A DNA stretch of 64,000 nt from Dehalococcoidia bacterium (GTDB taxonomy: Bacteria > Chloroflexota > Dehalococcoidia > GIF9 > UBA5629), in contig DUEX01000001.1 in assembly GCA_011170325.1 (NCBI GenBank), positions 373 to 64,372 on the forward strand. Reading direction: 5' to 3'. Below, in pieces: positions 17,051-52,412 of the stretch. The notes beneath the pieces are model-generated. The model searched no databases. It was not told where the DNA came from and worked only from the letters and a program-made list of their open reading frames with translations. How positions within the stretch are numbered: position 1 is the first letter of the stretch; every line of letters begins with the position of its first letter. The position numbers and the translations under genes were made by a program.

Positions 17051-17070
17051 ACATCTTCCAGTTTTTGTGC

Positions 17071-18300: not shown

Positions 18301-18320
18301 GTCAGCCTCCTTCTGAGAAT

Positions 18321-19658: not shown

Positions 19659-19662
19659 TATT

Positions 19663-20122: not shown

Positions 20123-20258
20123 GTCGGGGGCAAAACTTCAACCGCCTTTATATCTCTGAGGAAACAATACAGGTATCATGAAAGGGTAATGCACCTCCTG
20201 AGTCTATGGTGTAAAGTCAGGTTTGGAAGAACCCGAATATACCATAAGGAGGTGCTAA

Positions 20259-22952: not shown

Positions 22953-23002
22953 CTTTGGTCATTGCTAGAGATACAATAACAGAATCATAAGGAGCTGAGA
23001 AG

Positions 23003-24163
23003 ATGGAGTTTCAATTGAACGAAGAGCAAGTGATGCTTAAGAGAATGGTGCATGAGGTAGCCGAGAAGGAGTTCCGCCCGAAAGTAACAGAATGGGAGAC
23101 TAAAGCTGAATTCATGCCCCGTGAGTACTTCAAGAAGCTAAGCTCATTAGGGCTTTTAGGATTGTCTGTCCCTGTAGAATACGGAGGACAGGGGCGAACT
23201 GCTTTCGAAGTTATTCTAGCTATTGAAGAGCTAGCACGGGTATCAATTCTATGTGCTTTACCTGTTTTTGAATCTGGTGTGGGACCTGTCAGGGTGATCG
23301 AGCAATTTGGAACCGAAGACCAAAAACGAAAATATATACCTCCCGTATGCCAAGGCGAATCCTGGTGTGCCGTTGGTATGACTGAACCTGAGGCTGGTTC
23401 AGCGCTAACTGATCTCAGCACAAGAGCTGTCCTAAATGGCAATTACTATGTTGTGAACGGCACGAAATGCTTTATTACCGGAGGAGGCGAGGCTGACATT
23501 TACGTGACATATGTGAGACTCAGTGAGCAGAAAGGTGCTAAAGGCATTGGTGGGCTGATCATTGAAAAAGGGGCGGCAGGTTTTTCTTTCGGCAAGCAGG
23601 AGCAGTTTATGGGCTGGCGAGGCGTGCCAAGCTGTGACCTAATCTTCGAAGATTGCCGTGTGCCCAAAGAGAACCTTGTAGTCAGGGAAGGAGATTTCAG
23701 AAGGCTGATGACTGCGTTTGACCTTGAGCGGTGTGGTAATGCAACTATGTGTTTGGGGATAGCCCAAGGAGCCCTTGAACAGGCAATAGACTATTCGCAA
23801 CAAAGGAAGCAGTGGGGCAAAGACATATGTGAGTTTCAAGCAGTCCAGTTCATGTTAGCTGACGCACTTATAAAGGTCGAAGCAGCCCGGCTTTTAATCT
23901 ATAGGGCAACAGTCAATGCTGCCACGGGGTTGCCCTCTCCGCTTGAGGCGAACCTTGCTAAGTGCTTTGCTAATCAAATGGTGAGAGATGTCACCGCGCT
24001 TGTTTTGCAGATACACGGCGGCTACGGTTATTCGAAGGACTATCCTGTAGAGCGCATGTTACGTGATGGCTGGGGTTGGGGGATCGCTGGTGGTAGCATT
24101 GAGATTCAGAAAACCACCATAGCCTCTCAGCTTCTAAATCGCAGATTCGATCAGAGGAAGTAG
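23003..24163 (+). CDS. Acyl-CoA dehydrogenase
   Basis: 386 aa with N-terminal helical, middle beta and C-terminal helical ACAD domains (GMTEPEAGS, CFITGGG, YPVERMLRD). Confidence 0.85.
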   Translation: MEFQLNEEQVMLKRMVHEVAEKEFRPKVTEWETKAEFMPREYFKKLSSLGLLGLSVPVEYGGQGRTAFEVILAIEELARVSILCALPVFESGVGPVRVIEQFGTEDQKRKYIPPVCQGESWCAVGMTEPEAGSALTDLSTRAVLNGNYYVVNGTKCFITGGGEADIYVTYVRLSEQKGAKGIGGLIIEKGAAGFSFGKQEQFMGWRGVPSCDLIFEDCRVPKENLVVREGDFRRLMTAFDLERCGNATMCLGIAQGALEQAIDYSQQRKQWGKDICEFQAVQFMLADALIKVEAARLLIYRATVNAATGLPSPLEANLAKCFANQMVRDVTALVLQIHGGYGYSKDYPVERMLRDGWGWGIAGGSIEIQKTTIASQLLNRRFDQRK

Positions 24164-24775
24164 AGGGCTCGGGAATAAGGTCAGCACCATTCTATTTATG
24201 AAACCTATTTACCAAAAGCTTGCAATTGCGATATAGCTTTCCGCAATTGTACCGTAGACCATTTGGCATGCAATCCATCGTTTCGTTCAATCCGACGACA
24301 TCGAACTTTCCATCTTTTTGTTGCTTTACTTTAAGCCAATTTGTGTCTATATTCCCAACTTCCCAAAGGATATGCGGTATAGTAAATAATCCCAAGAGTT
24401 ACCCAGTAGATTACCAAGCAAAACCATCGAAGCACAAGATGGATGGCTTCTGCCTTTTCCAAACCCTATGTCTCCTGCAATTCCTGAATCGCTTCGGGAT
24501 CAGGATGAGCGTTAGATTCAGCCCAATGCTGCGCATAGATCAGGCTAGGGCCTCGTCTTCCAGTCAGCCACCAACGTCTCCTAATAGTAGCTAACTAATT
24601 TCCTCCTGACTAATCCCATCTATCAATGCTAATTTCGCGTGGAAGTAGGAACAATAACAGCAACCATCTACTGCACTTACAGCCAGCATAAGCCTCTCCT
24701 GGAAAGCTGGTGATAACAACCTCCCTTATTCTTCATTTCCTTCAGTCGTTCCCAACAGTATACTGTTTACGCAGC

Positions 24776-25933
24776 TTAGGCAAAAGCAGAAATTCCCAAC
24801 AAATCGCGGCCCACGATTAACTGCTGCATTTGAGTAGTGCCATCGGGAACAACAGCTACCCGTGCATCCCTAAAATAACGCTCTAATTGGTACTCCTCAG
24901 AAAGTCCGTAAGCCCCTAAAACCTCCATAGCCTCAGAAGTAACTCGCACAGCAACTCGTGGTGCGAACGATTTGGCGAGTGCCACGTTTCTAGCCCTTCC
25001 CTCTTCCTGATCTAGAGACTGAAAGGCTCTGTAGACTAAAAAGCGAGCTGCTTCGACATCAGCCCACATATCGGCCAGCATACCTTGAATCAGCTGAAAC
25101 TGACCAATTACTTTGCCAAACTGACGCCTTTGTTTCGCATAATCGATAGCACTGTCCAAAGCAGCCTGAGCAGCACCCAGGCTATTCATCGAAATACAGC
25201 ATCGAGACAACTCTACTCCAGCCATAAAACGTCTGAAGCCGCTTCCCGGCTCTCCAATGATGTTCTTTCTGTGTACCCAACAGTCCTCAAACGTAAGTTC
25301 GGCATTATCCCAACAGCGCATCCCGATTTTTGGTAGCAGACGCGTAGCAAAAGGAGAGACTTCCTTGTCGATAATGATAAGTGACATACCTCGACTGCCT
25401 TTGCTAGGATCCATAAGTGCTAAAACGATAGCCATTTCAGCTATAAATGCACATGAAATCCAAGTCTTCGTCCCATTGATTACGTAATAATCATTATCTA
25501 GTGCAGCTATGGTTTTACACTCGGCCAAATTTGAGCCAGCTTCAGGCTCAGTCCCGGCCTCGCACCATATTTTGTCACCTGCAAACAAAGCAGCTAAATG
25601 CCATCTTTGGTCTTCGGCACCTGGTGCAGCCAGATAATGAGCACCAGCAATCTGTATTTGTACGATTCCGGCTAAGGAGCCCCATGCTCTGGCTAACTCT
25701 TCGTAAAGTACAGCATACGAAGTCCAATCTAGAGCCATACCACCACACTCCTTAGGAAAGGGCCCGTTTAGATACCCTAAAGGAATGATCGTTTTCAGCA
25801 ATTCATGAGCCGCTTGATTAGGTAGATGGGTCATTTTTTCGTATGTGTTTACAACAGGGATTATTTCTCGTTCCATGAAAGAACGAGCATTCTGCTTGAC
25901 GAGCTTTTGTTCTTCATTTAACTCAAAATCCAT
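24776..25933 (-). CDS. Acyl-CoA dehydrogenase (IVD/LCAD-type catalytic Glu on helix G)
   Basis: 385-aa ACAD fold. NAELTFEDC carries a Glu at the IVD-type base position. The C-terminal motif reads VPDGT. Confidence 0.85.
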   Translation of the reverse strand: MDFELNEEQKLVKQNARSFMEREIIPVVNTYEKMTHLPNQAAHELLKTIIPLGYLNGPFPKECGGMALDWTSYAVLYEELARAWGSLAGIVQIQIAGAHYLAAPGAEDQRWHLAALFAGDKIWCEAGTEPEAGSNLAECKTIAALDNDYYVINGTKTWISCAFIAEMAIVLALMDPSKGSRGMSLIIIDKEVSPFATRLLPKIGMRCWDNAELTFEDCWVHRKNIIGEPGSGFRRFMAGVELSRCCISMNSLGAAQAALDSAIDYAKQRRQFGKVIGQFQLIQGMLADMWADVEAARFLVYRAFQSLDQEEGRARNVALAKSFAPRVAVRVTSEAMEVLGAYGLSEEYQLERYFRDARVAVVPDGTTQMQQLIVGRDLLGISAFA

Positions 25934-34147: not shown

Positions 34148-34222
34148 GCGGGAGTAACTCAGTGGTAGAGTTCCTGCCTTCCAAGCAGGCTGTCGCGGGT
34201 TCGAGCCCCGTCTCCCGCTCCA
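34148..34222 (+). tRNA. tRNA-Gly (anticodon TCC)
   Basis: Cloverleaf reconstructed by hand: acceptor stem GCGGGAG/CTCCCGC, D arm ACTC-AGTGGTA-GAGT, anticodon stem CCTGC/GCAGG with loop CTTCCAA, T arm GCGGG-TTCGAGC-CCCGT, and an encoded CCA. Confidence 0.85.
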
Positions 34223-35668: not shown

Positions 35669-36174
35669 TGTGATTCCTGCTTTGTATTCTCAATTGTCCC
35701 GCCTGATTCTCCTGCCGGTAATGTCTCTGTTCTCCTACAAGAAGTCTTAGACACAATTGCCAGCAACAGCTAACCATTCTATACCGTCACCAGTTCCCTT
35801 TCAATCTTCAAGTTATGACCTCACAGAATCAGCCAACAGCCAGAGTATCGTTCTCAAGGCAACAGAATAGACAGTCCTGGACGTATGCTTATCACTAACA
35901 TATTTGCTTGGTGCGTATGTGCCAAGTAAAGATAGAGTGACTGGTCTCCCATTCCACCCTATCTGGGTCAGCTTTGGATTGCTTGGGGTAAGTTTTTGCC
36001 TGTTGACAAAATAGGAAAAAGCTTCTATCATATAATTGCCATCGACCATAAGGCGGTGAGTTTTTAGTAAAATAAAAATATCCGCTTGGATCAGCACTGA
36101 CCGAGACGGAAAATAGTGGCAATCTATCTTAGGCCTTTTCAGCAGTGCTGAGAAGGTCTAATTTTTGGGCAACT

Positions 36175-40103: not shown

Positions 40104-41348
40104 TCACTCACGAACCAATGTTAATAGCCCAAGCATTGCCAGAGACGCTAGACCAGCCCCGAAGTAGAAAGGGGCTGCTGGGCTGATTGCCTGCCACAGC
40201 CAGCCAGCGATTACACTGGCTGGCAAAAGAGTGCCACCGACTATGCCATGGAGAAGACCATAGGCGGTGCCTCGTCTCTCTTCTGGCACTAAATCAGCCA
40301 CAAAAGCTCTAGTCACCCCCTCAGCTAGCCCGTAATAGACCCCGTAAAATGCAAAAAGTAGCCATGCCTGCCACGAAGTTGATGCCAGGGCAAAACCAAA
40401 GTAGGTAAGCGCATAGATAAGCCACCCCAGAACTATGACTCGCCTTCTCCCCAGTCTGTCTGATAACACCCCGGCTGGCGTTGATAAAGTTGCATAGACG
40501 ACATTAAACAGAATGAGCATTAAGAGTATGTAAAGAACGGAGTTGCCTAGGTTTTGCGCCCGCAGAATGAGAAAGGCATCACTGGAATTGCCCAAAGTAA
40601 ACAGAAACATGATACCGAGAAAAAGCTTAAAGCGGTTATCAAAGCCAGCCTTGGCAGCTTGGGAGCTTATATCCAAATATGGCTGGCTTGCTTTCAAGTC
40701 AGAAGACTGTGGGCTTGAGCCTCTTTTGGACTCGTGGACAAAGAGAAACATGAATAAAGCTAGCACCGCAGGGACGATCCCAATAAGCACCAACCACTGA
40801 TAAGTGCCCCGGGCCAGTTCTAAAGTGCCCCTTTGCAGTAGAAAGACGACGACAGCTGCTGCCACAAGCCCTAAGGCAGCACCGAAGGTATCCATAGCTC
40901 GATGAATGCCGAAGCCTTTGCCTCGTTCTTCGGTGGATACAGAATCGGCTACCAGAGCATCTCGTGGAGCAGTGCGCACACCCTTCCCTAATCTATCAGT
41001 GAACCTTACTCCGAGCACCACTCCCCAGGTTGTAGCTACATACATGAAAGGCTTGGCCAGAGTAGATAATCCATAGCCAATAATAGCTAAAGATTTACGC
41101 TTACCCAGTTTATCGCTAAGCCAGCCACTGAGAATCCTGACCAGGGAAGCTGTGCTTTCAGTCAGTCCCTCGATGAAACCGATAATAACGGTAGCCGCCC
41201 CCAGTACATTGGCTAAAAACAAAGGGAGCAGAGTGAAAACCATCTCACTGCTGACATCAGTGAGAAAGCTCACCAGCCCCAAGAAGAATATATTGGGGTT
41301 AAGACCAAAAACACGCTTTCGTTCTGTGACTTGTGGGAGCTTTTCCAT
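40104..41348 (-). CDS. MFS transporter
   Basis: 414 aa with 12 predicted TM helices. MFS signature-like GWLSDKLGKRKS between TM2 and TM3. Confidence 0.75.
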   Translation of the reverse strand: MEKLPQVTERKRVFGLNPNIFFLGLVSFLTDVSSEMVFTLLPLFLANVLGAATVIIGFIEGLTESTASLVRILSGWLSDKLGKRKSLAIIGYGLSTLAKPFMYVATTWGVVLGVRFTDRLGKGVRTAPRDALVADSVSTEERGKGFGIHRAMDTFGAALGLVAAAVVVFLLQRGTLELARGTYQWLVLIGIVPAVLALFMFLFVHESKRGSSPQSSDLKASQPYLDISSQAAKAGFDNRFKLFLGIMFLFTLGNSSDAFLILRAQNLGNSVLYILLMLILFNVVYATLSTPAGVLSDRLGRRRVIVLGWLIYALTYFGFALASTSWQAWLLFAFYGVYYGLAEGVTRAFVADLVPEERRGTAYGLLHGIVGGTLLPASVIAGWLWQAISPAAPFYFGAGLASLAMLGLLTLVRE

Positions 41349-41501
41349 GAAATATGAGCCTAATATAACACTACTGCTGAGAAGTCTACCATAAGTGATA
41401 GCTAAGCATCATAACATTAACTAATCTAGCTAGCATAAAGTTTGACCAAGAAAGCATTTTCTGCTAAACTACCGATTTGGTTATTTAAGCCTGTGGAGGG
41501 C

Positions 41502-41960
41502 ATGGTGCGTGATGAGTTAGCTGAGATACTGGCTGAATATGGGGGGGAAAAAGGGGCATTAATTCCAATTCTGCAAAGGATTCAAGAGAAGTTCGGGTAT
41601 CTTCCAGAAGAGGCAATTTCAGAGATAGCTAAATTTTCTCGGATGGCGGAAAGCGAAATCTTTGGAGTTGCCTCTTTTTATGCCCAGTTCTACTTCACTC
41701 GTCGTGGTCAGCATACCGTCAAAGTCTGTCTAGGTACTGCCTGCCATGTCCGCGGGGGTGAGCGTATTCTGGACGAGGTGAAGAGAGAGCTAGGTGTTGA
41801 GTCTGGAGGCACGACCAAAGACTATAAACTCAGCCTAGAGAGGGTAGCTTGTTTTGGCTCTTGTGCATTGGCTCCAGTAATGGTTATCGATAAAAATGTT
41901 TATGGTCGGATGACTATTGCTAAGGCAAAGGATATCCTAGATGAATATCGCCGAGGATAG
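41502..41960 (+). CDS. NuoE-like 2Fe-2S thioredoxin-fold subunit (FdsG-like) of an NAD-linked formate dehydrogenase
   Basis: Cys motif CLGTACHVRGG...CFGSCALAP. ATG follows GGAGGG. Confidence 0.8.
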   Translation: MVRDELAEILAEYGGEKGALIPILQRIQEKFGYLPEEAISEIAKFSRMAESEIFGVASFYAQFYFTRRGQHTVKVCLGTACHVRGGERILDEVKRELGVESGGTTKDYKLSLERVACFGSCALAPVMVIDKNVYGRMTIAKAKDILDEYRRG

Positions 41961-41966
41961 AGAGCT

Positions 41967-43877
41967 ATGACTTTCGAGGAAATCCGCAATCGGGCAGCAT
42001 CAGAATGGGAAGCACTGCAATCCAGTAATAAGCCGCGGATCTTAGTCGGTGCAGGCACTTGTGGTAGAGCCGCCGGGGCTCTTGGTATTCTTGAAGCCAT
42101 TAATGAAGAGCTTACACGACTAAATATTGAGGCTATTGTTATCCAGGTTGGCTGCATGGGCCTATGTTATGCTGAACCGATGATTGGCATAACAAAGCCG
42201 GGGCGCGCACAAATCATTTACGGCGCTTTGACCCCTGAGCTAGTGACTCAGCTTATTGATGATTACCTGGTTAATGGTAACCCCCACTCCGACTTGGCTC
42301 TAGGCTATGTCGGTAATGGTAGCGTTGATGGTATCCCTAATTTGTTCGAGTTGCCGGTAATCAAGCCACAAGTTCGCTTGATCCTTCGTAAATGCGGTTT
42401 TATCGATCCTGAGAGTATCAACCATTACATTGCCAATGGTGGCTATAGTGGTTTGGTCAAGGCGTTAAAGATGGCGCCAGAGGCAATCATCGAGGAGATT
42501 AAGAAGTCAGGTCTGCGTGGGAGAGGAGGCGCTGGCTTCCCAACTGGGCAAAAGTGGGATTTTTGTCGGAAAGCACCGGGAAACGAAAAATACATTATTT
42601 GCAATGCCGACGAAGGCGACCCGGGGGCTTTTATGAATCGGTCATTGCTGGAAGGCGACCCTCATTCAGTTTTGGAGGGGATGGTTATCGGTGCTTACAC
42701 TATAGGGGCGAACCAGGGCTATATTTACTGCCGCGCTGAATATCCCTTAGCTCTGGAGAGATTGAGGCTGGCTCTTCATCAAATGGAAGAGCACGGTTTC
42801 ATCGGGGATAATATTCTTGGTTCCGGTTTCAATTTCCATATAAAGATTAAGGAAGGAGCAGGAGCATTTGTTTGTGGCGAAGAGACAGCTTTGATGGCCT
42901 CTATTGAAGGCAAGCGAGGAATGCCCCGGTCACGACCACCTTTTCCAGCGATTTCCGGATTGTGGGGTAAGCCAACAAATATTAATAATGTGGAAACTTG
43001 GGCAGATGTAGCGCTGATTTTACAAAAAACCAGTGACTGGTATGCCCAGTACGGTTCGGAGACAAGCAAGGGAACAAAGACATTCGCCTTAGTCGGTAAG
43101 GTGGACCGCACCGGGCTTATTGAGGTCCCCTTAGGCATTACTTTAGGTGAAATCATTTATGACATTGGCGGCGGCATTCTTAAAGGCAAAAAATTTAAAG
43201 CAGTGCAAACTGGCGGCCCTTCGGGAGGTTGCCTGCCATCGTCTATGCTTGATTCACCTGTTGATTATGAATCGTTGACCGCTGCTGGCTCAATCATGGG
43301 CTCAGGCGGCATGATTGTTGCTGATGAAGATACCTGCATGGTTGACCTGACAAAGTATTTTCTTACTTTTACTCAGGCGGAGTCTTGCGGTAAATGCCCC
43401 CCATGTCGAGTTGGCACACGGCAAATGCTGGGTATTTTGGAACGTATAACCCGAGGGGAAGGCGAGCCTGGGGATGTAGAGCAGCTTGACAGGATAGCTA
43501 CCACGGTTAAGCAGGGCTCCCTCTGTGGTCTAGGGCAAACCGCCCCTAACCCGGTGCTGACTACTATTCGCTATTTCCGTGATGAATATGATGCTCACAT
43601 TAATGAAAAGCGGTGCCCATCCCTGATATGTAAAGATTTGATTTCCTTTTACATTTTGCCAGATAAATGTCAGGGCTGTATGATTTGTTTGCGAAATTGC
43701 CCTGTTGAAGCAATTTCTGGCGGTAAAAGATTAGTACACGTTATCGACCAGGATAAATGTGTTAAATGTGGGACATGTCTTGATGTTTGCCCACCTCGTT
43801 TTGCTGCTGTAGCTAAAGTCTCAGGTGAGCAGATTGAAGTCCCTTCACAGCCTGTACCTATTGAGACATCAGCTTGA
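41967..43877 (+). CDS. NuoF-like NAD(H)/FMN-binding Fe-S subunit (FdsB/HndC-like) with C-terminal 2x[4Fe-4S] ferredoxin domain
   Basis: GRGGAGFPTGQKW FMN site. ESCGKCPPCRVG. C-terminal CQGCMICLRNCP...CVKCGTCLDVCP. Confidence 0.85.
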   Translation: MTFEEIRNRAASEWEALQSSNKPRILVGAGTCGRAAGALGILEAINEELTRLNIEAIVIQVGCMGLCYAEPMIGITKPGRAQIIYGALTPELVTQLIDDYLVNGNPHSDLALGYVGNGSVDGIPNLFELPVIKPQVRLILRKCGFIDPESINHYIANGGYSGLVKALKMAPEAIIEEIKKSGLRGRGGAGFPTGQKWDFCRKAPGNEKYIICNADEGDPGAFMNRSLLEGDPHSVLEGMVIGAYTIGANQGYIYCRAEYPLALERLRLALHQMEEHGFIGDNILGSGFNFHIKIKEGAGAFVCGEETALMASIEGKRGMPRSRPPFPAISGLWGKPTNINNVETWADVALILQKTSDWYAQYGSETSKGTKTFALVGKVDRTGLIEVPLGITLGEIIYDIGGGILKGKKFKAVQTGGPSGGCLPSSMLDSPVDYESLTAAGSIMGSGGMIVADEDTCMVDLTKYFLTFTQAESCGKCPPCRVGTRQMLGILERITRGEGEPGDVEQLDRIATTVKQGSLCGLGQTAPNPVLTTIRYFRDEYDAHINEKRCPSLICKDLISFYILPDKCQGCMICLRNCPVEAISGGKRLVHVIDQDKCVKCGTCLDVCPPRFAAVAKVSGEQIEVPSQPVPIETSA

Positions 43878-43938
43878 GGTGGATTTCTAAAGTGGCACTC
43901 GCTCATGATTTGTGTATGCTAGCAGGAATTGATAGGAG

Positions 43939-46710
43939 TTGAGCATGGTTGTTGGTCAGGAGACTAGAACTATTGATTTGACTATTGACGGGCAGCAGGT
44001 CAAGGCAAAAGAAGGAGCTACAGTACTTGAGGTGGCCCGGGAGGGGGGTATTTATATTCCTACTCTATGTTACCATCCCAGCTTGACTCCATACGGAAGC
44101 TGCCGTATGTGCATAGTTGAGATTGAGAACATACGGGGATTCCCCACTGCTTGCACTACACCAGTAACTGAGAGCATGGTAGTCAACACCAATACGCCGC
44201 AGCTTCAAGAGTTAAGACGCAATATCCTTGAACTAGCTCTTAGTGAGCATCCCTATGCCTGCCTCATTTGTGACCGTAGAGAGCGTTGCCAACCTTTCCA
44301 CATTACACTGCGAAAAACAGCTGTAACTAGTGGATGCACAATGTGCCCCAAGAATAGGCGCTGTGAGTTGCAGGAGGTAGTTGATTACGTTGGTCTTACC
44401 GAAGTTAGGTTATCTCCTATCTATCGGGATTTACCGATTCTTAGAGATTCACCCTTTTTTGACCGGGATTACAACTTGTGCATACTTTGCGGGCGCTGCG
44501 TTCGGGTATGTCAGGAGGTAAGAGGAGCTGGAGCAATTGCCTTTACTTACCGAGGTAGCCAGGCTCTGGTTGGCACTGCCTTCGATAGGTCGTTACAAGA
44601 CTCAGGATGTCAATTTTGCGGGGCTTGCGTTGATGCTTGTCCCACTGGTGCTTTAATGGAGCGCTCTGGTAAATGGCAGGGACTACCTGAGTCCACTGTA
44701 ACTACAACCTGTGGCTATTGCGGGGTCGGTTGCCAATTAAACCTTGAAATAAAGGGAGGAAAGATTGTTCGGGTAGCACCAGTTCTGGACAATTCAGTTA
44801 ATCAGGGACAAGCCTGTGTTAAAGGTCGTTTTGGCATTGCCGAATTTGTCCATCATCCTCAGCGCTTGACTACGCCCTTAATACAAAGGAATGGAGAATT
44901 AGTCGAGGCGAGCTGGGACGAGGCACTAACTCTGGTAACAAAAAGGTTGGCGAACTACAAGGGAAATCAATTTGCCTTTATTTCCTCAGCCAAATGCACC
45001 AACGAGGAGAATTACCTAGCTCAGAAGTTCACTCGCATGGTAATGGCTACCAATAATATTGACCATTGTGCCCGGTTATGTCATGCGCCCACAGTAGCTG
45101 GTTTAGCTCAGGCTTTTGGCAGCGGTGCTATGACCAATTCCATCAATGAGATCAAGGATGCTGCCTGTATACTTGTTATCGGCAGTAATACAAGCTCAGG
45201 TCATCCGGTTATTGCCCTGGAGATAATAAAGGCAGTGCGCAATGGTGGTAAACTCATTGTGGCTAATCCCAGGGAGATTGAACTTTGTCGCTACGCTGAT
45301 ATCTGGTTGAGGCATTTCCCTGGCAGCGATGTTGCCTTGCTTATGGGTATGATGCGGGTCATTATAGATGAGGAGCTAGCCGATTTAGCGTTTGTCGAAG
45401 AACAGTGCCAGGACTTCGATGCTTTTAGAGAATCGCTAATCAATTTTGATCTGGATCTTGCAGAGAAGGTTACTGGTGTAACCAGCGATAAGATAGTTGA
45501 GGCAGCTCGGCTGTATGCTACTCATAAACCAGCAAGCATTATCTACGCTATGGGCATTACCCAGCATAGTCATGGCACAGATAATGTATCAGCTACCGCC
45601 AATTTAGCTATGCTCGCTGGTAACATTGGCAAGCCGTCAACGGGTGTAAACCCGCTGCGAGGGCAGAATAACGTTCAAGGTGCCTGTGACCTGGGAGCTT
45701 TACCTAATGTTTATACTGCTTACCAGAGGGTTGATAATCCTGACATTCAGAAGAAATTTGAGACTGCCTGGGTATGCAGCCTAGATGCTAGTCCAGGGTT
45801 AACTTTACCAGAGATGATTGAAGCTGCTTATAGTGGGCAGATTAAGGCGGTTTATTTAATGGGTGAAAACCCGTTACTGAGCGAAGCTGATGCTGGGCAT
45901 GCTCAGGAGGCATTGAGTAAGCTAGACTTCTTAGTGGTTCAGGATATTTTTCTTACCGAGACAGCTCAGCTAGCTGATGTAGTTTTGCCAGCAGCTAGCT
46001 TTGCTGAGAAAGATGGCACTTTTACTAATACCGAACGGCGAATACAGCGAGTAAGAAAAGCAATCGAGCCTATAGGCAATGCCAAGCCTGACTGGTGGAT
46101 TATCTGCCAGATAGCTAAGAGGTTAGAGGCTGAGGGTTTTGATTTTGAGCATCCTTCACAAATAATGGCTGAGATTGCTAGTTTGACTCCCAGCTACGGA
46201 GGTATCAGCTACCAGCGTCTGGAAGAATGTGGTCTACAGTGGCCTTGTCCGACTAAAGACCATCCTGGGACACCTATATTGCATGTGGGCAAGTTCGTTC
46301 GTGGTTTGGGAAAGTTTACACCGCTCGAGTATAGGCCGCCGGCAGAGTTACCCGACGAAGAGTATCCGCTAGTGCTGACCACGGGTCGTAGCCTCTACCA
46401 TTTTCATACCGGGACTATGACACGGAGGGTAATGGGGCTCAATGCCATCGAACCGGAAGGAGTAGTGGAGATAAACCCAGTTGACGCTTCTCATTTGAAG
46501 ATTGCCGATGGTGACAAAGTCAAGGTAATTTCTCGTCGTGGCGAGGTAATAGCTAAAGTGAGAGTAACTGAGGAGTCACCGCCCAAGGTAGTATTTATGA
46601 CCTTCCACTTTGCCGAGAGTGCAGCCAATATCCTGACTAATCCAGCGCTTGATCCTGTATCTAAAATTCCAGAATTCAAAGTATGCGCTGTAAGGGTTGA
46701 GAAAGTTTAG
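43939..46710 (+). CDS. Formate dehydrogenase alpha subunit (FdsA-type: NuoG-like Fe-S N-terminus + molybdopterin catalytic domain), cysteine-type
   Basis: 923 aa. N-terminal 2Fe-2S and 4Fe-4S motifs. Active-site region IDHCARLCHAPTVAGL is homologous to E. coli FdhF NCARVUHGPSVAGL, with Cys replacing Sec. MGD-binding domains follow. Confidence 0.85.
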   Translation: MSMVVGQETRTIDLTIDGQQVKAKEGATVLEVAREGGIYIPTLCYHPSLTPYGSCRMCIVEIENIRGFPTACTTPVTESMVVNTNTPQLQELRRNILELALSEHPYACLICDRRERCQPFHITLRKTAVTSGCTMCPKNRRCELQEVVDYVGLTEVRLSPIYRDLPILRDSPFFDRDYNLCILCGRCVRVCQEVRGAGAIAFTYRGSQALVGTAFDRSLQDSGCQFCGACVDACPTGALMERSGKWQGLPESTVTTTCGYCGVGCQLNLEIKGGKIVRVAPVLDNSVNQGQACVKGRFGIAEFVHHPQRLTTPLIQRNGELVEASWDEALTLVTKRLANYKGNQFAFISSAKCTNEENYLAQKFTRMVMATNNIDHCARLCHAPTVAGLAQAFGSGAMTNSINEIKDAACILVIGSNTSSGHPVIALEIIKAVRNGGKLIVANPREIELCRYADIWLRHFPGSDVALLMGMMRVIIDEELADLAFVEEQCQDFDAFRESLINFDLDLAEKVTGVTSDKIVEAARLYATHKPASIIYAMGITQHSHGTDNVSATANLAMLAGNIGKPSTGVNPLRGQNNVQGACDLGALPNVYTAYQRVDNPDIQKKFETAWVCSLDASPGLTLPEMIEAAYSGQIKAVYLMGENPLLSEADAGHAQEALSKLDFLVVQDIFLTETAQLADVVLPAASFAEKDGTFTNTERRIQRVRKAIEPIGNAKPDWWIICQIAKRLEAEGFDFEHPSQIMAEIASLTPSYGGISYQRLEECGLQWPCPTKDHPGTPILHVGKFVRGLGKFTPLEYRPPAELPDEEYPLVLTTGRSLYHFHTGTMTRRVMGLNAIEPEGVVEINPVDASHLKIADGDKVKVISRRGEVIAKVRVTEESPPKVVFMTFHFAESAANILTNPALDPVSKIPEFKVCAVRVEKV

Positions 46711-46717
46711 AGAGAAA

Positions 46718-48904
46718 ATGACCGAGCTTAATCTAATCATTGATGGACAACAAATAGCAGCAGAGCGTGGAATGACCATATTTGAGGCTGCCACCAAGGC
46801 AGGCATATATATTCCCAGCCTTTGTGCTCATCCCGACTTGTCTCCTTCGGGGGAATGTGGACTGTGTTTAGTAGAAATTGAAGGCGAGCCTGAGTTCGCA
46901 ATTTCATGCACTACAGATGTCGCTGAAAATATGGTGCTGCACACCGATACACCACAGCTTCGGCAGAAGCAGCACGAGGTCTTAGAGAAGATTCTATCTG
47001 AGCATCCAAATGCCTGCCTCACTTGCTGGCGCAAGGAGCGCTGTGAACCATTTGATATATGTCTACGGAATGTAGCAGTAACCGAGCGCTGTGTTACCTG
47101 CCCTGAAAATGGGCGATGCGAACTGCAAAAAGTGGTCGACTACTTGGATATTGGAATCGCAACCATTCCTTACAAGTATAGGAAACTCCCAATAAACAGG
47201 GATAATCCTTTCTTCGATCTGGATTACAATCTGTGCATTGCCTGCGGGCGGTGCGTTAGAGCTTGCCAAGATTTGAGAGGGGTAAAAGCTCTAGACTTCA
47301 TTGAATTGAATGGCTATCGAGTAGCTGGGCCAATTAGGGGCAACCACAAGGATTCGGGATGCAAGTTTTGCTTTACTTGTGTCGAAGTTTGTCCCACTGG
47401 GGCACTAGTAGACAGAGAAGCAAGATATCAGACTATCTCGGATTGGGAAGCTTATGTTGTTCCATGTCGCCAAGCTTGCCCAGCTCATATAGACATACCC
47501 CGCTACATAAATTTCATTGCTCAGGGAAAATACAGTGAGGCCTTAGCTGTGATACGAGAGAAGGTTCCGTTTCCTGGAGTGCTAGGGCGTGTTTGCGTAC
47601 ATCCGTGTGAACAAGCATGCCGACGCAGTCAATTAAGTGAGCCGATTTGTATAAAGTTTCTCAAGCGTTTCGCCGCTGACTACGATACTGGCTTATGGAA
47701 ACAGAATGCTAAAGTGGCGCCACCAACAGGCAAGCGAGTAGCTGTAGTTGGCTCAGGCCCAGCAGGGCTTACTGCAGCCTATTACTTGGCCAAACTCGGG
47801 CATTCGGTAACGGTTTTCGAAGCTTTGCCGCAAACAGGAGGTATGACACGGGTAGGTATTCCAGCCTACCGTTTGCCACGAGAAATCCTGAATGCTGAAA
47901 TTGAAGAGATCGAAAAAGTAGGCGTTGATATAAAAACTAACACTAAAATAGAATCCCTAGATAGTCTCTTTGAGCAAGGCTATAATTGTGTATTTTTGGC
48001 TCTGGGGGCTCATCGGGGAACCAAGATGGGTGTTGATGGTGAAGACAGCCCCGGTGTAATAGACGGTGTGGATTTCCTTCGCCAGGTAAGCTTAGGTGAA
48101 GAAGTAACGATAGGAGAAAAGGTAGCCATAATTGGTGGTGGCAACGCAGCTATAGACTGTTCGCGAACCGCACTCCGCCTTGATGCTAAAGAGGTGACCA
48201 TTATTTACCGCCGCACCCGGGCTGAAATGCCAGCCAGTCCTGAAGAGGTAGAAGAGGCATTAAGAGAAGGGGTGAAAATTATATTCTTGGCAGCACCCAC
48301 CCAGGTAAGCGTCAAAGATAGACACATCGAGCTGGAGTGTCTGCAGATGAAATTGGGTGAGCCTGATGCCAGCGGCAGGCGCCGACCAGTGCCAATCAGG
48401 GGGAGCGAGTTCACTATGGAATTTCACAATGTGATAGCTGCTATTGGACAAGCGCCTGAAGTTCCAGCCCAGTTTGAGATCGAACTTGGTCGGGGGAATG
48501 TCATTAAGACAAATAGCGAAACCTTGGCTACTAATCGAGAAGGTGTGTTTGCTGGTGGTGATGTTGTCACTGGTCCGGCCTCAGTCATCGGAGCTATTGC
48601 CCAAGGCAGACAGGCAGCTAGCTCTATAGACAGCTATCTGGGTGGCAATGGCATTATTGATGAGTCCCTCATATCTGCTGATGAACCTGACCCTTGGTTG
48701 GGAACCGATGGTGATTTTGCTGACCGAATCCGAGCACATATGTCCTGTCTAGATATCAGTCAGCGCTTGGCTGACTTTGCCGAGGTAGAGCTCGGCTATG
48801 ATGAGGCGACAGCCGAAGAAGAGGCAAAGCGCTGCTTAAGATGCGACCTTAGACTGAAACTGTCTTCGCCCATGTTGCCACCGGTAAAGGTTAAATCTGC
48901 TTAG
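46718..48904 (+). CDS. Fusion protein: NuoG/FdsA-N-terminal-like Fe-S domain + GltD/NfnB-like NAD(P)H:FAD oxidoreductase (SfrB-like)
   Basis: Residues about 1-235 are a paralog of the FdsA N-terminus, down to the NLCIxCGRCVRxCQ and CxFCxxCVxxCPTGAL motifs. Then 2x Cys clusters and VAVVGSGPAGLTAAYYLAKLGHSVTVFE dinucleotide motifs of the GltD family. Confidence 0.7.
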   Translation: MTELNLIIDGQQIAAERGMTIFEAATKAGIYIPSLCAHPDLSPSGECGLCLVEIEGEPEFAISCTTDVAENMVLHTDTPQLRQKQHEVLEKILSEHPNACLTCWRKERCEPFDICLRNVAVTERCVTCPENGRCELQKVVDYLDIGIATIPYKYRKLPINRDNPFFDLDYNLCIACGRCVRACQDLRGVKALDFIELNGYRVAGPIRGNHKDSGCKFCFTCVEVCPTGALVDREARYQTISDWEAYVVPCRQACPAHIDIPRYINFIAQGKYSEALAVIREKVPFPGVLGRVCVHPCEQACRRSQLSEPICIKFLKRFAADYDTGLWKQNAKVAPPTGKRVAVVGSGPAGLTAAYYLAKLGHSVTVFEALPQTGGMTRVGIPAYRLPREILNAEIEEIEKVGVDIKTNTKIESLDSLFEQGYNCVFLALGAHRGTKMGVDGEDSPGVIDGVDFLRQVSLGEEVTIGEKVAIIGGGNAAIDCSRTALRLDAKEVTIIYRRTRAEMPASPEEVEEALREGVKIIFLAAPTQVSVKDRHIELECLQMKLGEPDASGRRRPVPIRGSEFTMEFHNVIAAIGQAPEVPAQFEIELGRGNVIKTNSETLATNREGVFAGGDVVTGPASVIGAIAQGRQAASSIDSYLGGNGIIDESLISADEPDPWLGTDGDFADRIRAHMSCLDISQRLADFAEVELGYDEATAEEEAKRCLRCDLRLKLSSPMLPPVKVKSA

Positions 48905-48917
48905 CTTTAGAGGTATC

Positions 48918-49778
48918 ATGTTCAGAATTCTGGCTAAAGAGAAGCTTACCCCCTTTATAACTATGCTGAAAATCCAGGCGCCTGCAATAGCCCGAAAAGC
49001 CCAACCAGGACAGTTTGTTGTCGCTCGGGTCGACGAGGTTGGTGAGCGTTTTCCGATTAGTTTAGCCAATTGGGACAATGAAGAGGGCAGTATTACCATA
49101 GTGGTCATGGAAGTGGGCACTTCTACGCGTAAACTAGCGTGCCTTAACGCAGACGACCATATATTAAATTTGGCAGGCCCACTAGGTCTGCCTGCCCACA
49201 TAGACAATTTTGGTAAGGTGGTTTGTGCTGGTGGCTGCTATGGCATCGGAGCAATCCTGCCCATAGCTCGTGCCCTTAAAGAATCAGGCAATGAGATTAT
49301 TTCCATTATAGAAGCCCGGAGTAAAAACCTGCTTTACTGGCAGGAACCTCTGCGCCAAGTTAGCGATGAGCTCATCATGACTACAGGCGATGGCTCCTAC
49401 GGTTATAAAGGTTGGACTTATGACCCGCTAAAGGAAATGCTGGAAAAAGGTGAAAAGGTCGACCGAGTATTCGCTCACGGCTGTAATTTTATGATGATGC
49501 TTTGCTCCGAAATCACGAAGCCTTTTGGTGTCAAAACCATGGTTAGCCTTAACCCAATTATGGTTGATGGTACCGGCATGTGCGGAGTATGTCGGGTCTC
49601 CGTAGGCGGCGTCACCAAGTTTGCTTGTGTCGACGGACCAGAGTTTGACGGACACGAAGTTGACTGGGAATTGCTAGCATCCAGACGCCAAAGCTACATT
49701 CAAGAGGAAATAAGGTCGCTGGAATGGTGGGAATGCCAGCAATGGTGCCTGACAACAGCTAAGTCTAAGGAGGCTTAA
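48918..49778 (+). CDS. nfnA: NfnA/SudB/PyrK-like FAD-NAD(P) ferredoxin-reductase-type subunit with C-terminal 2Fe-2S site
   Basis: 286 aa with an FNR-like fold and the C-terminal MCGVCRV...C cluster. Confidence 0.7.
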   Translation: MFRILAKEKLTPFITMLKIQAPAIARKAQPGQFVVARVDEVGERFPISLANWDNEEGSITIVVMEVGTSTRKLACLNADDHILNLAGPLGLPAHIDNFGKVVCAGGCYGIGAILPIARALKESGNEIISIIEARSKNLLYWQEPLRQVSDELIMTTGDGSYGYKGWTYDPLKEMLEKGEKVDRVFAHGCNFMMMLCSEITKPFGVKTMVSLNPIMVDGTGMCGVCRVSVGGVTKFACVDGPEFDGHEVDWELLASRRQSYIQEEIRSLEWWECQQWCLTTAKSKEA

Positions 49779-49780
49779 AC

Positions 49781-51193
49781 TTGGAGGAAAAACCAAAGCC
49801 GAAGCTTGATTTAAATAGAGTGCCAATGCCTAGGCAAGATCCAAAGGCCAGGGCAAAAAATTATAATGAGGTAGCTCTGGGCTACACTGAGGAAATGGCA
49901 CTTCAGGAGGCAAATCGTTGCATTCAATGCCCAAAGCGTCCATGTATCGATGGCTGCCCAGTAAATGTGGACATTCCCGACTTTATTAAGGCAATACGAG
50001 ACAACGATATGGCCGAGGCAGTAAGGATACTCAAAAGCAAGAACAGCCTTCCCGGTGTCTGTGGACGTGTCTGTCCTCAGGAAACACAGTGCGAAGCGCT
50101 ATGCTCGCTGGGCAAAAAGGGGGCGCCTATAGCTATCGGCCGCCTGGAGCGCTACGTGGCTGATTGGGAACAAAGCCATGGTTCAAATCCACGTCCTTCA
50201 CCTGAATTGCCACCACCGACGGACAAAAAAGTAGCTGTCATTGGCTCAGGCCCAGCCGGGTTAACCTGTGCTGCTGATCTAGCCAAATTGGGACATGAAG
50301 TGACTATTTTTGAGGCGCTCCATGTTGCTGGTGGTGTGCTAATGTATGGCATTCCTGAGTTCAGACTTCCCAAGAGTATCGTCCAGGCTGAAGTTGACTT
50401 TGTTAAGTCTTTAGGGGTGGATATCAGGCTCGATTCAGTAATGGGTAAATTAGCTACTGTTGACGAGCTATTAGAAGGTGACTACGATGCTATCTTCTTA
50501 GGCACCGGAGCTGGATTGCCGATGTTCATGGATATACCCGGTGAGAACCTCAACGGTATCTATTCAGCTAATGAATTCCTTACCAGGGTCAATCTAATGA
50601 AAGCCTATCTCTTTCCTGAATATGATACCCCCATAAAGGTGGGAAGGAGAGTAGCCGTTATAGGTGGTGGCAATGTAGCCATGGACTCAGCTCGCTGTGC
50701 CCTAAGGCTTGGAGCCAATGAAGTTTATATCGTCTACCGACGGTCTCGAGCCGAGATGCCAGCCCGACTTGAGGAGGCAGAAAACGCTGAGGAGGAAGGG
50801 ATTATCTTCAAGATTCTCACTAATCCAAAGCAGTTTATAGGCGATAACCAGGGCTGGGTAACAGCCATGGAATGCTACGAGATGGAACTGGGTGAACCTG
50901 ATGCCAGTGGCCGACGTCGCCCCATTGTCAAGGAAGGTAGTGAATTCATCATCGATGTTGATGTGGTGGTTGTAGCTCTGGGAACAACCCCTAATCCTTT
51001 AATTCCGTCAACTACAAAAGGCTTAGAAACCACAAAGCGTGGCACTGTAGTCGCCGATGAGGAAACCGGTAAAACGGTGAAGGACAAAGTCTGGGCTGGC
51101 GGCGATGTTGTTACTGGTGCAGCTACGGTCATCAGCGCTATGGGTGCTGGAAAAAGAGCTGCCGCCTCAATAGATGCCTATCTCAAGAGATAG
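49781..51193 (+). CDS. nfnB: NfnB/SudA/GltD-like NADPH-dependent FAD oxidoreductase with N-terminal 2x[4Fe-4S]
   Basis: CIQCPKRPCIDGCP and CGRVCPQETQCEALC motifs, with VAVIGSGPAGLTCAADLAKLGHEVTIFE. Confidence 0.75.
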   Translation: MEEKPKPKLDLNRVPMPRQDPKARAKNYNEVALGYTEEMALQEANRCIQCPKRPCIDGCPVNVDIPDFIKAIRDNDMAEAVRILKSKNSLPGVCGRVCPQETQCEALCSLGKKGAPIAIGRLERYVADWEQSHGSNPRPSPELPPPTDKKVAVIGSGPAGLTCAADLAKLGHEVTIFEALHVAGGVLMYGIPEFRLPKSIVQAEVDFVKSLGVDIRLDSVMGKLATVDELLEGDYDAIFLGTGAGLPMFMDIPGENLNGIYSANEFLTRVNLMKAYLFPEYDTPIKVGRRVAVIGGGNVAMDSARCALRLGANEVYIVYRRSRAEMPARLEEAENAEEEGIIFKILTNPKQFIGDNQGWVTAMECYEMELGEPDASGRRRPIVKEGSEFIIDVDVVVVALGTTPNPLIPSTTKGLETTKRGTVVADEETGKTVKDKVWAGGDVVTGAATVISAMGAGKRAAASIDAYLKR

Positions 51194-51893: not shown

Positions 51894-52149
51894 AATAGCC
51901 TCCTTATAGTATTTTGCTCAAACGTTTCCCACCGTGAACACTTTTCTTCTTATGGTCATGACACCATTAAATGCTAATTAGTGCTTCAACAGCATAGTCT
52001 CTTAGGTTATGACCTTGATTGCTAAGGTTAGCTTGGTTTGTCGCGTAGTTTATAGCTTTTTGCCGAAGTCGTCAAAAACTTGACAAATCCCGAATAGATA
52101 CTTAAAATATACTGCAATAGAATATAGCAAAGGCTGAGAACAGAACTAG

Positions 52150-52412
52150 TACGCCTTAAAGCGAAGCTACAGAGAGTCAGAGTAGGTGAAAGCTGATGCT
52201 AGCGCAAAGGCTGAATGGATCTGGGAGCCGCAAACCGAAAGGTTAGTGGAAGCAAGCACGAGTAGGTTTTGACGCAAGGGTAGCGTTATCAAAACTCAGG
52301 GTATCGCTTTAGTAAATTACAGCCGTACCTGAAAGAGATGGTCGATAAAGGCCAACAAGGGTGGCACCGCGAAGCTTAAGCCTCTCGCCCCTTAGGCGAG
52401 AGGCTTAAATTT
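52150..52412 (+). promoter_or_regulatory. T-box riboswitch leader (probable tRNA-Trp responsive) with intrinsic terminator, upstream of trpE
   Basis: Conserved T-box AAGGGTGGCACCGCG at 52357..52371. Followed by the terminator hairpin AAGCCTCTCGCC-CCTTA-GGCGAGAGGCTT (52378..52406) and then AAATTTAT. Upstream AGAGAG and AGTAGG Stem-I-like elements, and a TGGA candidate specifier. Confidence 0.55.

Follow-up and report, generated by a model that had tools for sequence, protein, structure and literature searches.

A six-gene redox cluster in a Dehalococcoidia genome

The 64,000-nt stretch of the Dehalococcoidia bacterium contig DUEX01000001.1 analysed here (the window) contains six plus-strand open reading frames (ORFs) within positions 41442-51193, which encode a predicted formate dehydrogenase together with modules linked to NAD(H), NADP(H) and ferredoxin. 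The cluster is a real and recurrent unit in one Dehalococcoidia subclade and not a product of chance, and its first three genes look like a Type 1 Fdh-Bfu rather than a simple NAD-linked Fds enzyme. The six genes, with the basis of each assignment in brackets, are as follows (bis-PGD, bis-pyranopterin guanine dinucleotide; aa, amino acids).

41442..41960, + strand: bfuC/hydC/nuoE-like [2Fe-2S] subunit, 172 aa from TTG 41442 (PF01257, NF005722)
41967..43877, + strand: bfuB/hydB-type NAD(H)/FMN subunit, 636 aa (Pfam and end-to-end alignment to solved B subunits)
43945..46710, + strand: fdhA, Cys-type Mo/W-bis-PGD formate dehydrogenase catalytic subunit, 921 aa, 101 kDa (TIGR01591)
46718..48904, + strand: fusion protein, 728 aa, 79.6 kDa (Pfam, PDB matches, AlphaFold/Foldseek)
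48918..49778, + strand: nfnA, PyrK-like FAD/[2Fe-2S] NAD(H)-binding small subunit, 286 aa (NF004862, PF10418)
49781..51193, + strand: nfnB, GltD-like bifurcating FAD/2x[4Fe-4S] NADP(H)-binding large subunit, 470 aa (TIGR01316, PF14691)

An initial annotation of this DNA had described six same-strand genes with short gaps and had named the same six modules. The ORFs and the stop-to-start gaps (6, 61 or 67, 7, 13 and 2 nt) were confirmed, and Pfam and NCBIfam agreed with all six module identities. The ORF list of the window gives the spans above, except that the third ORF covers 43939-46710 and the fourth begins at either 46697 or 46718. The start of fdhA is most likely ATG 43945, favoured over TTG 43939 because of the ribosome-binding site AGGAG 6 nt upstream of it, and the preceding gap is then 67 nt and not 61. 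The fusion gene starts at ATG 46718 and not at the overlapping TTG 46697, since its homologues have 727-734 aa and a 100% identical database protein has 728 aa. The nuoE-like gene has two candidate starts, TTG 41442 and ATG 41502; its start codon is uncertain because the alignments of its relatives begin at residue 1 in some lineages and at about residue 18-22 in others.

We infer that the six genes form one operon from the gaps of 2-67 nt, the ribosome-binding-site-like motifs (AAGGAGG, for instance, stands 8 nt before TTG 49781 of nfnB), the lack of a convincing internal terminator and the fact that the neighbouring operons have leaders of their own. Consensus scans, which gave 25 promoter-like sites (16 expected) and 15 terminator-like sites (12 expected), found no convincing intrinsic terminator on the plus strand within the cluster. 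The operon promoter probably lies in the following region, in which the consensus scan detected no promoter-like site, the sole nearby match beginning at 41442, inside the nuoE-like ORF.

41349..41441, + strand: AT-rich intergenic region between the divergent transporter gene and the nuoE-like gene (sequence reading)

The NuoE-like and NuoF-like subunits

The NuoE-like subunit (BfuC) matched PF01257 with 169 bits over aa 27-170 and the NuoE family NF005722 with 148.6 bits (cut-off 141), and its motifs CLGTACHVRG...CFGSCALAP hold all four Cys of the [2Fe-2S] cluster. The NuoF-like subunit (BfuB) gave Pfam matches to Complex1_51K (154 bits), NADH_4Fe-4S (117 bits), SLBB and Fer4 (twice), and its NuoF core, with the FMN/NADH site and cluster B1, was recognised by the motifs GRGGAGFPTG and CGKCPPC. 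Its residues 24-120 make up an N-terminal thioredoxin-like domain that aligns with solved B subunits. Three sites in BfuB were located as follows.

43386-43406, + strand: B1 [4Fe-4S] (motif position)
43596-43631, + strand: His/Cys site, HINEKRCPSLIC, aa 544-555 (aligns with solved B subunits)
43668-43793, + strand: C-terminal 2x[4Fe-4S] ferredoxin domain, aa 568-609 (motifs CQGCMICLRNCP and CVKCGTCLDVCP, Fer4 Pfam matches)

Both C-terminal motifs (CxxCxxCxxxCP) match the same motifs in 7t2r_B, 9n5u_B, 9bov_B and 8oh5_B; for the thioredoxin-like and His/Cys sites the sequence does not tell Fe-S from Zn. BfuB aligned end to end with the B subunits of bifurcating enzymes, namely A. mobile NiFe-HydB (7t2r_B, 827 bits), T. 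sibiricus NfnB (9n5u_B, 801 bits), C. saccharolyticus NfnB (9bov_B, 789 bits) and S. ovata StnB (8oh5_B, 765 bits). In contrast, alignments to the non-bifurcating FdsB reached about half these scores (440 bits for 6vw7_B and 381 bits for 6tg9_B) and stopped at query residue 541-544. The extra B-subunit sites have been reported to separate bifurcating Bfu enzymes from non-bifurcating NuoF, FdsB and HoxF (Schut et al., PMC9304861; Li et al., PMC11829005); the non-bifurcating homologues are without them, and in T. kivui HydABC bifurcation was lost when the B3/B4 clusters were deleted (PMC11829005). Judged from its sequence, BfuB carries all features of bifurcating B subunits and is predicted to be of the HydB/BfuB type, not FdsB-like. 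Because it has every Bfu-type extra Fe-S domain, nuoE-nuoF-fdhA resemble a Type 1 Fdh-Bfu, which acts on formate, NAD+ and ferredoxin.

The label "Fds-type NAD-linked" in the initial annotation is therefore not tenable for the B subunit, which is 636 aa long with bifurcating-type Fe-S domains, whereas FdsB has about 500 aa and no C-terminal 2x[4Fe-4S] domain. The window does share with FdsABG of Rhodobacter capsulatus and Cupriavidus necator the gene order gamma-beta-alpha and a Cys-type, FdsA-type catalytic subunit, but no FdsD- or FdsC-like gene is found among its six.

Some relatives encode a fused NuoF-GltD protein upstream of fdhA (1024-1027 aa; L042 4109-7183, L096 12893-15976 and L026 1-1159, codes L002-L111 denoting the collected relative loci). 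The alignment of the L096 protein to BfuB stops at residue 559, ahead of the 2x[4Fe-4S] domain. Operons with this NuoF variant thus hold up to three GltD-type modules.

The formate dehydrogenase subunit

FdhA scored 854.5 bits against TIGR01591 (cut-off 666), and its N-terminus is NuoG/BfuA-like (Pfam Fer2_4, NADH-G_4Fe-4S_3 and Fer4_Nqo3). It aligned over its full length with R. capsulatus FdsA (6tg9_A, 765 bits, residues 6-918) and with 9wxb_B (782 bits), and CAR(V/L)CH and PLRGQNNVQG are kept among the three. It is predicted to be a complete catalytic subunit with the Cys-His and Arg motifs.

45079-45081, + strand: active-site Cys codon TGT, motif CARLCHAPT (sequence)
45652-45681, + strand: conserved Arg motif PLRGQNNVQG (alignment)

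The TGT codon agrees with the earlier designation of FdhA as Cys-type. The active-site codon is an in-frame TGA in 31 of the 36 orthologous loci (TGA-type loci being found among L005-L018, L026, L037-L055, L070, L084, L097 and L106-L111), and TGT occurs in the window and in five related loci (L002, L003, L032, L096 and L101). The family is thus predicted to be mostly of the selenocysteine (Sec) type, with the window enzyme as a Cys variant. An FdhA fused to a BfuA-like N-terminus on a BC core is by definition a Type 1 Fdh-Bfu (PMC9304861).

The fusion protein

The fourth gene joins a second NuoG-like Fe-S module to a GltD-type flavin module. Its parts are given here, together with the corresponding insertion in FdhA.

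aa 1-245, + strand: NuoG-like Fe-S module (Fer2_4, NADH-G_4Fe-4S_3, Fer4_Nqo3)
aa 249-710, + strand: GltD-type FAD/NADPH module (Pyr_redox_2/Fer4_20)
47003-47128, + strand: Cys-rich insertion region, fusion aa 96-137 (alignment)
44248-44373, + strand: Cys-rich insertion region, FdhA aa 102-143 (alignment)
47738-47803, + strand: FAD motif (motif position)
48206-48235, + strand: YRRTRAEMPA motif (motif position)
48722-48853, + strand: C-terminal tail with the CxxC of the first GltD cluster (alignment to NfnB residues 10-53)

The N-terminus is 52% identical to that of FdhA. The remainder matched the NADPH-input subunits 9bov_A (546 bits), 8oh5_C (491 bits) and 9n5u_A (483 bits), query residues 247-712 corresponding to chain residues 103-568, and the score of the GltD module against T. 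maritima NfnB (302 bits) was well below that for 9bov_A. The last ~45 residues match the N-terminus of NfnB (residues 10-53) and bring with them its N-terminal CxxC. The Fe-S segment of the GltD module is predicted to be circularly permuted, and the match to the StnC/NfnA chains at residues 103-568 is consistent with a shared permuted layout. The AlphaFold model (pLDDT 90.5, pTM 0.88) had the same three chains, 9bov_A, 8oh5_C and 9n5u_A, as its top PDB matches in Foldseek, over 722-739 columns.

The FAD motif is kept, and YRR(T)RAEMPA, which we take to be a marker of NADP(H) binding, is also present in NfnB. We read the fusion as a predicted NADP(H)-linked electron-input/output subunit. The homologous flavin of Stn is not the bifurcation site and passes electrons via Fe-S clusters to the BC core (PMC10482914); for the Moorella NADP-dependent formate dehydrogenase (NADP-FDH), an NADP(H)-linked role has been assigned to the 76-kDa beta subunit, whose gene is annotated sfrB2 (PMC13040438), and StnC is 39.9% identical to SfrB (PMC7483475).

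Both NuoG-like modules contain, relative to R. capsulatus FdsA, a Cys-rich insertion of ~25 residues after the His(Cys)3 motif. In the fusion, aa 96-137 include eight invariant or almost invariant residues, one His and seven Cys, in place of the four ligands expected, and the AlphaFold pLDDT is ~58 here; the insertion may hold an extra [4Fe-4S] or Zn site. Recent gene conversion between the two modules was considered and rejected, within-locus identity being 45-53% nearly everywhere and 64% only in L018. The same 45-53% identity in nearly all loci indicates that the duplication of the NuoG-like module is old.

NfnA and NfnB

NfnA scored 380 bits against NF004862 (cut-off 220), and its best PDB matches were the small subunit of P. 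furiosus NfnI (5jca_S, 335 bits) and 4ylf_A (240 bits). It contains a DGTGMCGVC...C motif, which presumably fits an Asp/Cys3-ligated cluster. NfnB scored 606 bits against TIGR01316 (cut-off 472) and covers positions 1-111 of the 113 in PF14691, i.e. the complete N-terminal 2x[4Fe-4S] domain; its best PDB matches were T. maritima 4ylf_B (611 bits, full length) and 5jca_L (549 bits). The scores for 4ylf_B and 5jca_S support the NfnAB identity proposed earlier, and the pair is predicted to be canonical, with nothing different in the proteins themselves from NfnAB of T. maritima or NfnI of P. furiosus, which they match over their full length. The unusual feature is that the pair is tightly linked to the fusion gene just 5' of it, and that this linkage is conserved.

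Distribution and synteny

Close homologues of the fusion were all from Chloroflexota/Dehalococcoidia metagenome-assembled genomes (MAGs) and metagenomes; there is also a 100% identical 8.1-kb JGI contig (L032). A scan of genome contigs for the fusion returned Chloroflexota loci only, plus a spurious weak match (L019, Haoranjiania flava, 25% identity). Among 1.84 billion representative proteins there were 5805 matches at E <= 1e-30. The best 150 of these, which matched mostly via the GltD module only, include same-architecture proteins (40-48% identity), ~700-aa relatives and many StnC-like proteins of ~1100-1250 aa.

From the 111 loci collected, neighbourhoods were classified for those with fusion homologues of at least 50% identity (104 loci, 72 lineages), a lineage being a group of fusion proteins at 95% identity. 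The 33 lineages with enough flank on both sides showed the following arrangements.

11/33 lineages: exact order nuoE-nuoF-fdhA-fusion-nfnA-nfnB, fusion 72-85% identical to that of the window
2/33 lineages: extended six-gene versions (L007, L016)
9/33 lineages: only the triad fusion-nfnA-nfnB, preceded by unrelated or opposite-strand genes, 64-69% identity
2/33 lineages: fdhA-fusion-nfnAB without nuoEF (L018, L038)
2/33 lineages: fusion-like gene, then fdhA without its first ~215 residues (L107, L109; also the partly flanked L055 and L106)
1/33 lineages: fusion-nuoE-[nuoF fused to GltD, 1027 aa]-fdhA-nfnA-nfnB (L096)
1/33 lineages: NuoE-like fragment, then fusion-nfnA-nfnB (L004)
1/33 lineages: cluster broken by a run of N (L010)
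4/33 lineages: fusion alone, with a tungsten aldehyde:ferredoxin oxidoreductase (AOR) immediately upstream in two (L098, L104)

The triad-only loci are L020-L027 and L057-L075, the latter range being only partly fully flanked. Among the partly flanked loci, nuoF is directly followed by the fusion, as a Stn-like trio, in L012, L029 and L090, and the fusion is followed by nuoE-nuoF(-fdhA) in L076, L087 and L101. The six-gene order described in the initial annotation is thus found in 11 distinct lineages with two extended variants, which argues against a chance arrangement. The most constant feature is the fusion gene with nfnA-nfnB directly 3' of it, an arrangement shared by 25 of the 33 lineages, with a median spacing of 18 nt over 64 loci. 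The gene set also survives rearrangement, as in L096 and in L012, the latter with nfnBA inverted and fdhA 6.7 kb away. This favours functional coupling over inherited gene order as the sole cause and strengthens the coupling of the modules proposed earlier. The modules are functionally linked but combinable, with fusion-NfnAB as the most conserved unit and nuoEF and fdhA as add-ons. This synteny suggests that the operon be parsed as [nuoE-nuoF-fdhA] + [fusion-nfnA-nfnB] and not as [FdsGBA] + fusion + [NfnAB].

Clade-specific inheritance alone is an unlikely cause of the fusion-nfnAB adjacency, given the 47%-identical outgroup L029 (nuoF-fusion-nfnA-nfnB) and the rearranged L096; relatives at 57-64% identity without this adjacency limit the rejection. 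In L012 (6361-11496), the inverted nfnBA, a GAF/PAS histidine kinase and a LuxR-type response regulator stand between nuoE-nuoF-fusion and a Sec-type fdhA, and the regulator genes hint at dedicated regulation.

In L098 (7992-9881) and L104 (8126-9988), fusion homologues of 57-60% identity directly follow the tungsten AOR gene. In L028 (3487-7951) a 46% homologue follows genes for a xanthine dehydrogenase/carbon monoxide dehydrogenase-type Mo-hydroxylase and a small NuoG-N-like protein, and distant homologues (42-46% identity) adjoin genes for Mo-hydroxylases, old yellow enzyme-type proteins or 2-oxoacid:ferredoxin oxidoreductases. Relatives of the fusion are accordingly paired with FdhA, N-terminally truncated FdhA, AOR and Mo-hydroxylases. 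These partners are low-potential Mo/W enzymes that otherwise use ferredoxin, and the fusion family seems to serve such enzymes in general as an NADP(H) adaptor. In L055, L106, L107 and L109 the fusion must supply the Fe-S wire, since fdhA there has no N-terminal Fe-S region of its own.

A proposed modular formate, NAD(H), NADP(H) and ferredoxin system

The reading that we favour, with a probability of roughly 50%, is a soluble modular system in an anaerobic bacterium, connecting formate/CO2, NAD(H), NADP(H) and ferredoxin and made up of an Fdh-Bfu, an NADP(H) branch via the fusion and a separate NfnAB. We infer the protein contacts, the substrate specificities and the catalytic direction of the six-gene system from the sequences. 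BfuC, BfuB and FdhA would form a HydABC-like Type 1 Fdh-Bfu with FdhA in the place of BfuA. FdhA would exchange electrons at about -420 mV, via its NuoG-like Fe-S chain, with the [B1-FMN-C1] site of BfuBC, which would split or merge them according to 2 formate + NAD+ + Fd(ox) <-> 2 CO2 + NADH + Fd(red), Fd being ferredoxin. The fusion would be an NADP(H) flavoprotein of the FdhB/SfrB/StnC type, itself non-bifurcating, whose paralogous Fe-S N-terminus plugs an NADPH-linked branch into the same Fe-S network; it might dock on FdhA, as in the alpha2beta2 NADP-FDH of Moorella, or at the BfuA position on BfuBC, as StnC does. NfnAB, co-expressed and free-standing, would equilibrate NADPH with NADH and ferredoxin.

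The window shares with Type 1 Fdh-Bfu enzymes (BfuABC, HydABC-like) the NuoE-like subunit, the HydB-type NuoF-like subunit and the A subunit with a NuoG-like N-terminus and a formate dehydrogenase body, and its BC core has all the predicted cofactor motifs. It differs in the NADPH flavoprotein with a second BfuA-like N-terminus and in the NfnAB that follows in the same operon. A predicted example of the type comes from Carboxydothermus hydrogenoformans (PMC9304861), and characterised relatives with a separate FdhF are HylABC-FdhF2 of G. acidurici and the Hyt-Fdh complex of C. autoethanogenum.

Several points weigh against this modular system. The operon encodes two BfuA-like subunits per BfuBC pair, both FdhA and the fusion having the N-terminal [2Fe-2S] and further Fe-S clusters of a BfuABC A subunit, which leaves the stoichiometry of a complex unclear. 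The functions of an Fdh-Bfu, an NADPH branch and NfnAB overlap in part, and we found no biochemically characterised Type 1 Fdh-Bfu in the literature. Both fdhA and nuoEF are dispensable beside the fusion in the nine triad-only lineages, L018 keeps fdhA without nuoEF, and purification of the Moorella NADP-FDH gave an alpha2beta2 enzyme with no NuoEF-type subunits (PMC13040438). The fusion falls below every curated NCBIfam cut-off (NF009454, 591 against 916; NF009410, 492 against 516), and its presumed link to Moorella FdhB and Geobacter SfrB draws on database names, subunit sizes and statements in the literature. Cluster look-ups of 10 distant fusion representatives for the Moorella FdhB link gave Collinsella and Acetobacterium names only, and searches for Moth_2312 and Moth_2314 found no domain description.

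Alternative readings

The main alternative, possible though doubtful, is that BfuBC binds FdhA or the fusion alternately in the role of BfuA, so that the operon would encode an Fdh-Bfu, a minimal Stn-like transhydrogenase and NfnAB as a third enzyme. The Stn-like enzyme would then be an Nfn-Bfu without the dead FdhF-like domain. FdhA and the fusion both have a complete BfuA-type N-terminus ([2Fe-2S], His-ligated cluster and 2x[4Fe-4S]), the Stn-like trios lack an fdhA between nuoF and the fusion, and the closest solved folds of the fusion, StnC and NfnA, dock on StnAB and NfnBC, respectively (PMC10482914). However, such an enzyme would duplicate the NfnAB reaction, and Kremp et al. noted that acetogen genomes hardly ever contain both Stn and Nfn (PMC7483475). 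The fusion is also without the C-terminal FdhF-like domain that mediates tetramerisation of Stn (PMC10482914), and nuoEF is absent from the 5-10 kb of upstream flank inspected in the triad-only lineages.

The comparison with Stn/NfnABC (PDB 8oh5, 9bov and 9n5u) bears on this alternative and on a bolder one. The B and C subunits of these enzymes are ~60-65% identical to those of the window, as judged by eye in the alignments, and the GltD module and fold of the fusion are closest to StnC/NfnA, permuted Fe-S segment included. Stn/NfnABC have a single large subunit of 950-1180 aa with GltD after the N-terminal [2Fe-2S] domain, then the remainder of NuoG and an inactive FdhF-like domain. The fusion has no pterin-like domain and matches these PDB chains in two separate stretches. 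In Stn, GltD is inserted in one ~1170-aa subunit whose FdhF-like domain is catalytically dead, two of its clusters having been described as an evolutionary remnant (PMC10482914; PMC7483475), whereas in the window the pterin subunit is separate and looks active, and GltD sits C-terminal to a complete NuoG-like module in the 728-aa protein. Fusion residues 249-712 match StnC 103-568 and FdhA residues 148-592 match StnC 580-987, so the two proteins together tile the Stn large subunit. The fusion may work like StnC, though its architecture is a different one.

This split and apparently active counterpart of Stn is the basis of the bolder reading, namely that BfuC, BfuB, FdhA and the fusion make up one four-subunit "Fdh/Nfn-Bfu" complex, to which the fusion-NfnAB triad could add a further physical partner. 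We put it forward tentatively and consider it a little more doubtful than alternate binding to BfuBC. If it holds, one bifurcation core would be fed by formate/CO2 through the pterin and by NADP(H) through the GltD flavin and would pass the electrons on to NAD+ and ferredoxin; such a complex would be a catalytically intact, unfused counterpart of Stn/NfnABC, and Bfu-type transhydrogenases would have evolved from NADP-linked bifurcating formate dehydrogenases. The sole precedent that we found for a bifunctional Bfu enzyme is the hydrogenase-FDH complex of C. autoethanogenum, which acts on H2 and formate (PMC9304861).

It is unlikely that FdhA and the fusion form a plain, non-bifurcating alpha2beta2 NADP-FDH of the Moorella type, with NfnAB supplying or removing NADPH and NuoE/NuoF as an unrelated or loosely associated NADH module placed upstream by chance in a single subclade. 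The resemblance of FdhA and the fusion to the SfrAB-type pair, pointed out in the initial annotation, is nonetheless borne out by gene adjacency, subunit masses and database names. Moorella thermoacetica FdhAB and Geobacter SfrAB likewise have a Mo/W FdhA with an Fe-S N-terminus beside a ~80-kDa Fe-S/GltD-type NADPH flavoprotein. The two genes are 7 nt apart in the window and encode proteins of 101 and 79.6 kDa, against 96 and 76 kDa in Moorella, where the genes, beta subunit first, are annotated sfrB2 and sfrA2+fdhF3 (PMC13040438). JGI names many fusion homologues "formate dehydrogenase beta subunit" or "formate dehydrogenase (NADP+) beta subunit", L013 and L018 have fdhA-fusion without nuoEF, and it is well established for the physiology of Moorella that NADP-FDH and NfnAB are paired (PMC11996240; PMC13040438). 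The Moorella enzyme is of the Sec type, as are 31 of the 36 FdhA orthologues, though the window enzyme itself is Cys-type. The Moorella gene order is beta-alpha, as in the four loci where a fusion-like gene precedes a truncated fdhA (L055, L106, L107 and L109), while the window has alpha-beta and adds a HydBC-type module before the pair and NfnAB after it. Against a Moorella-type enzyme, BfuBC needs an A-type partner, and the operon offers no candidates besides FdhA and the fusion; moreover, nuoE-nuoF lies directly upstream of fdhA in 13 lineages and is still linked to it in the rearranged L096 and L101.

Quite improbable, in our estimate, is that the fusion is a physical third subunit of NfnAB, with FdhA and BfuBC as optional clients on its NuoG-like domain, although the adjacency and spacing of fusion-nfnA-nfnB described above fit such a complex and persist without nearby fdhA or nuoEF, also in the outgroup L029. 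Low-potential electrons from bifurcation in NfnB would then reach CO2 via FdhA and not free ferredoxin. However, NfnA and NfnB are of canonical length with no added docking domain, a closed system of fusion plus NfnAB would, by our own thermodynamic argument, only dissipate NADPH into NADH, relatives at 57-64% identity without nfnAB are paired with AOR or FdhA, and nfnAB in L096 follows fdhA and not the fusion. Finally, an FdsGBA-type non-bifurcating NAD+-linked enzyme followed by an SfrB-like protein and NfnAB is very improbable: it fits the gamma-beta-alpha order and the 765-bit, full-length match of FdhA to R. capsulatus FdsA, but the thioredoxin-like N-terminus, His/Cys site and C-terminal 2x[4Fe-4S] domain of BfuB have no counterpart in FdsB, and BfuB scores 765-827 bits against bifurcating B subunits and only 381-440 bits against FdsB.

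Metabolic context and significance

Genes of the beta-oxidation type are densely packed at 10394-25933 of the window (3-hydroxyacyl-CoA dehydrogenases, enoyl-CoA hydratases, three acyl-CoA dehydrogenases and an acyl-CoA ligase), and a gene for the large subunit of methylmalonyl-CoA mutase lies at 13095-14750. These genes suggest an organic-acid-oxidising lifestyle that would need an outlet for NADH and reduced ferredoxin. From the beta-oxidation genes, reduction of CO2 to formate is suggested as a sink for both carriers, but the system could equally well oxidise formate.

The thermodynamic bottleneck of both the Wood-Ljungdahl pathway and syntrophic formate transfer is the interconversion of formate and CO2 at about -420 mV, and Dehalococcoidia rank among the most abundant uncultured bacteria in anoxic sediments. 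In this lineage a formate dehydrogenase appears to be genetically wired to all three soluble carriers, NADH, NADPH and ferredoxin. This would affect energy-yield models derived from MAGs, in which "FdhA-HydBC" and "NADPH-dependent FdhAB" usually count as alternatives; they have been treated as separate enzyme types, the latter as "NADPH-dependent FdhAB/FdpAB" (bioRxiv 10.1101/2021.07.06.451242). A natural split version of the Stn/NfnABC large subunit makes testable both the origin of the dead FdhF-like domain and whether one Bfu core can serve two input modules. Should the operon comprise merely co-regulated known enzymes, it would still provide a useful annotation rule, with no surprise.

Every module belongs to a described family, and it is their recurring combination for which we found no description. 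No account of the combined operon, the fusion-NfnAB triad or a formate-plus-NADPH Bfu enzyme was found in the literature searched, which is not proof of absence. The possibility raised earlier that the fusion is a common, already characterised formate dehydrogenase beta subunit in this very context holds in part: the family is common and carries that name at JGI, but we found no characterised enzyme that combines it with nuoEF and nfnAB.

Surroundings of the cluster

The six-gene unit appears to be bounded by unrelated, separately regulated operons with leaders of their own. Rfam found no molybdenum cofactor or other riboswitch upstream of the operon, and the flanks gave a pan motif, a T-box and a tRNA only.

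34148-34219, + strand: tRNA gene (Rfam)
36037-36113, + strand: pan motif RF01749, 46 bits, before a putative pan operon (panD/B/C), upstream of the cluster
40104-41348, - strand: major facilitator superfamily (MFS) transporter gene, divergent from the operon
52127-52395, + strand: T-box leader RF00230, 103 bits, before trpE of the trp operon (trpEDC), downstream of the cluster

A convergent 184-aa ORF lies directly downstream of the cluster, ahead of the T-box and trpEDC. The divergent MFS gene keeps its position in the six-gene loci L002, L009, L039, L040, L042 and L043, and it is also found upstream of triad-only loci, often adjoining panC.

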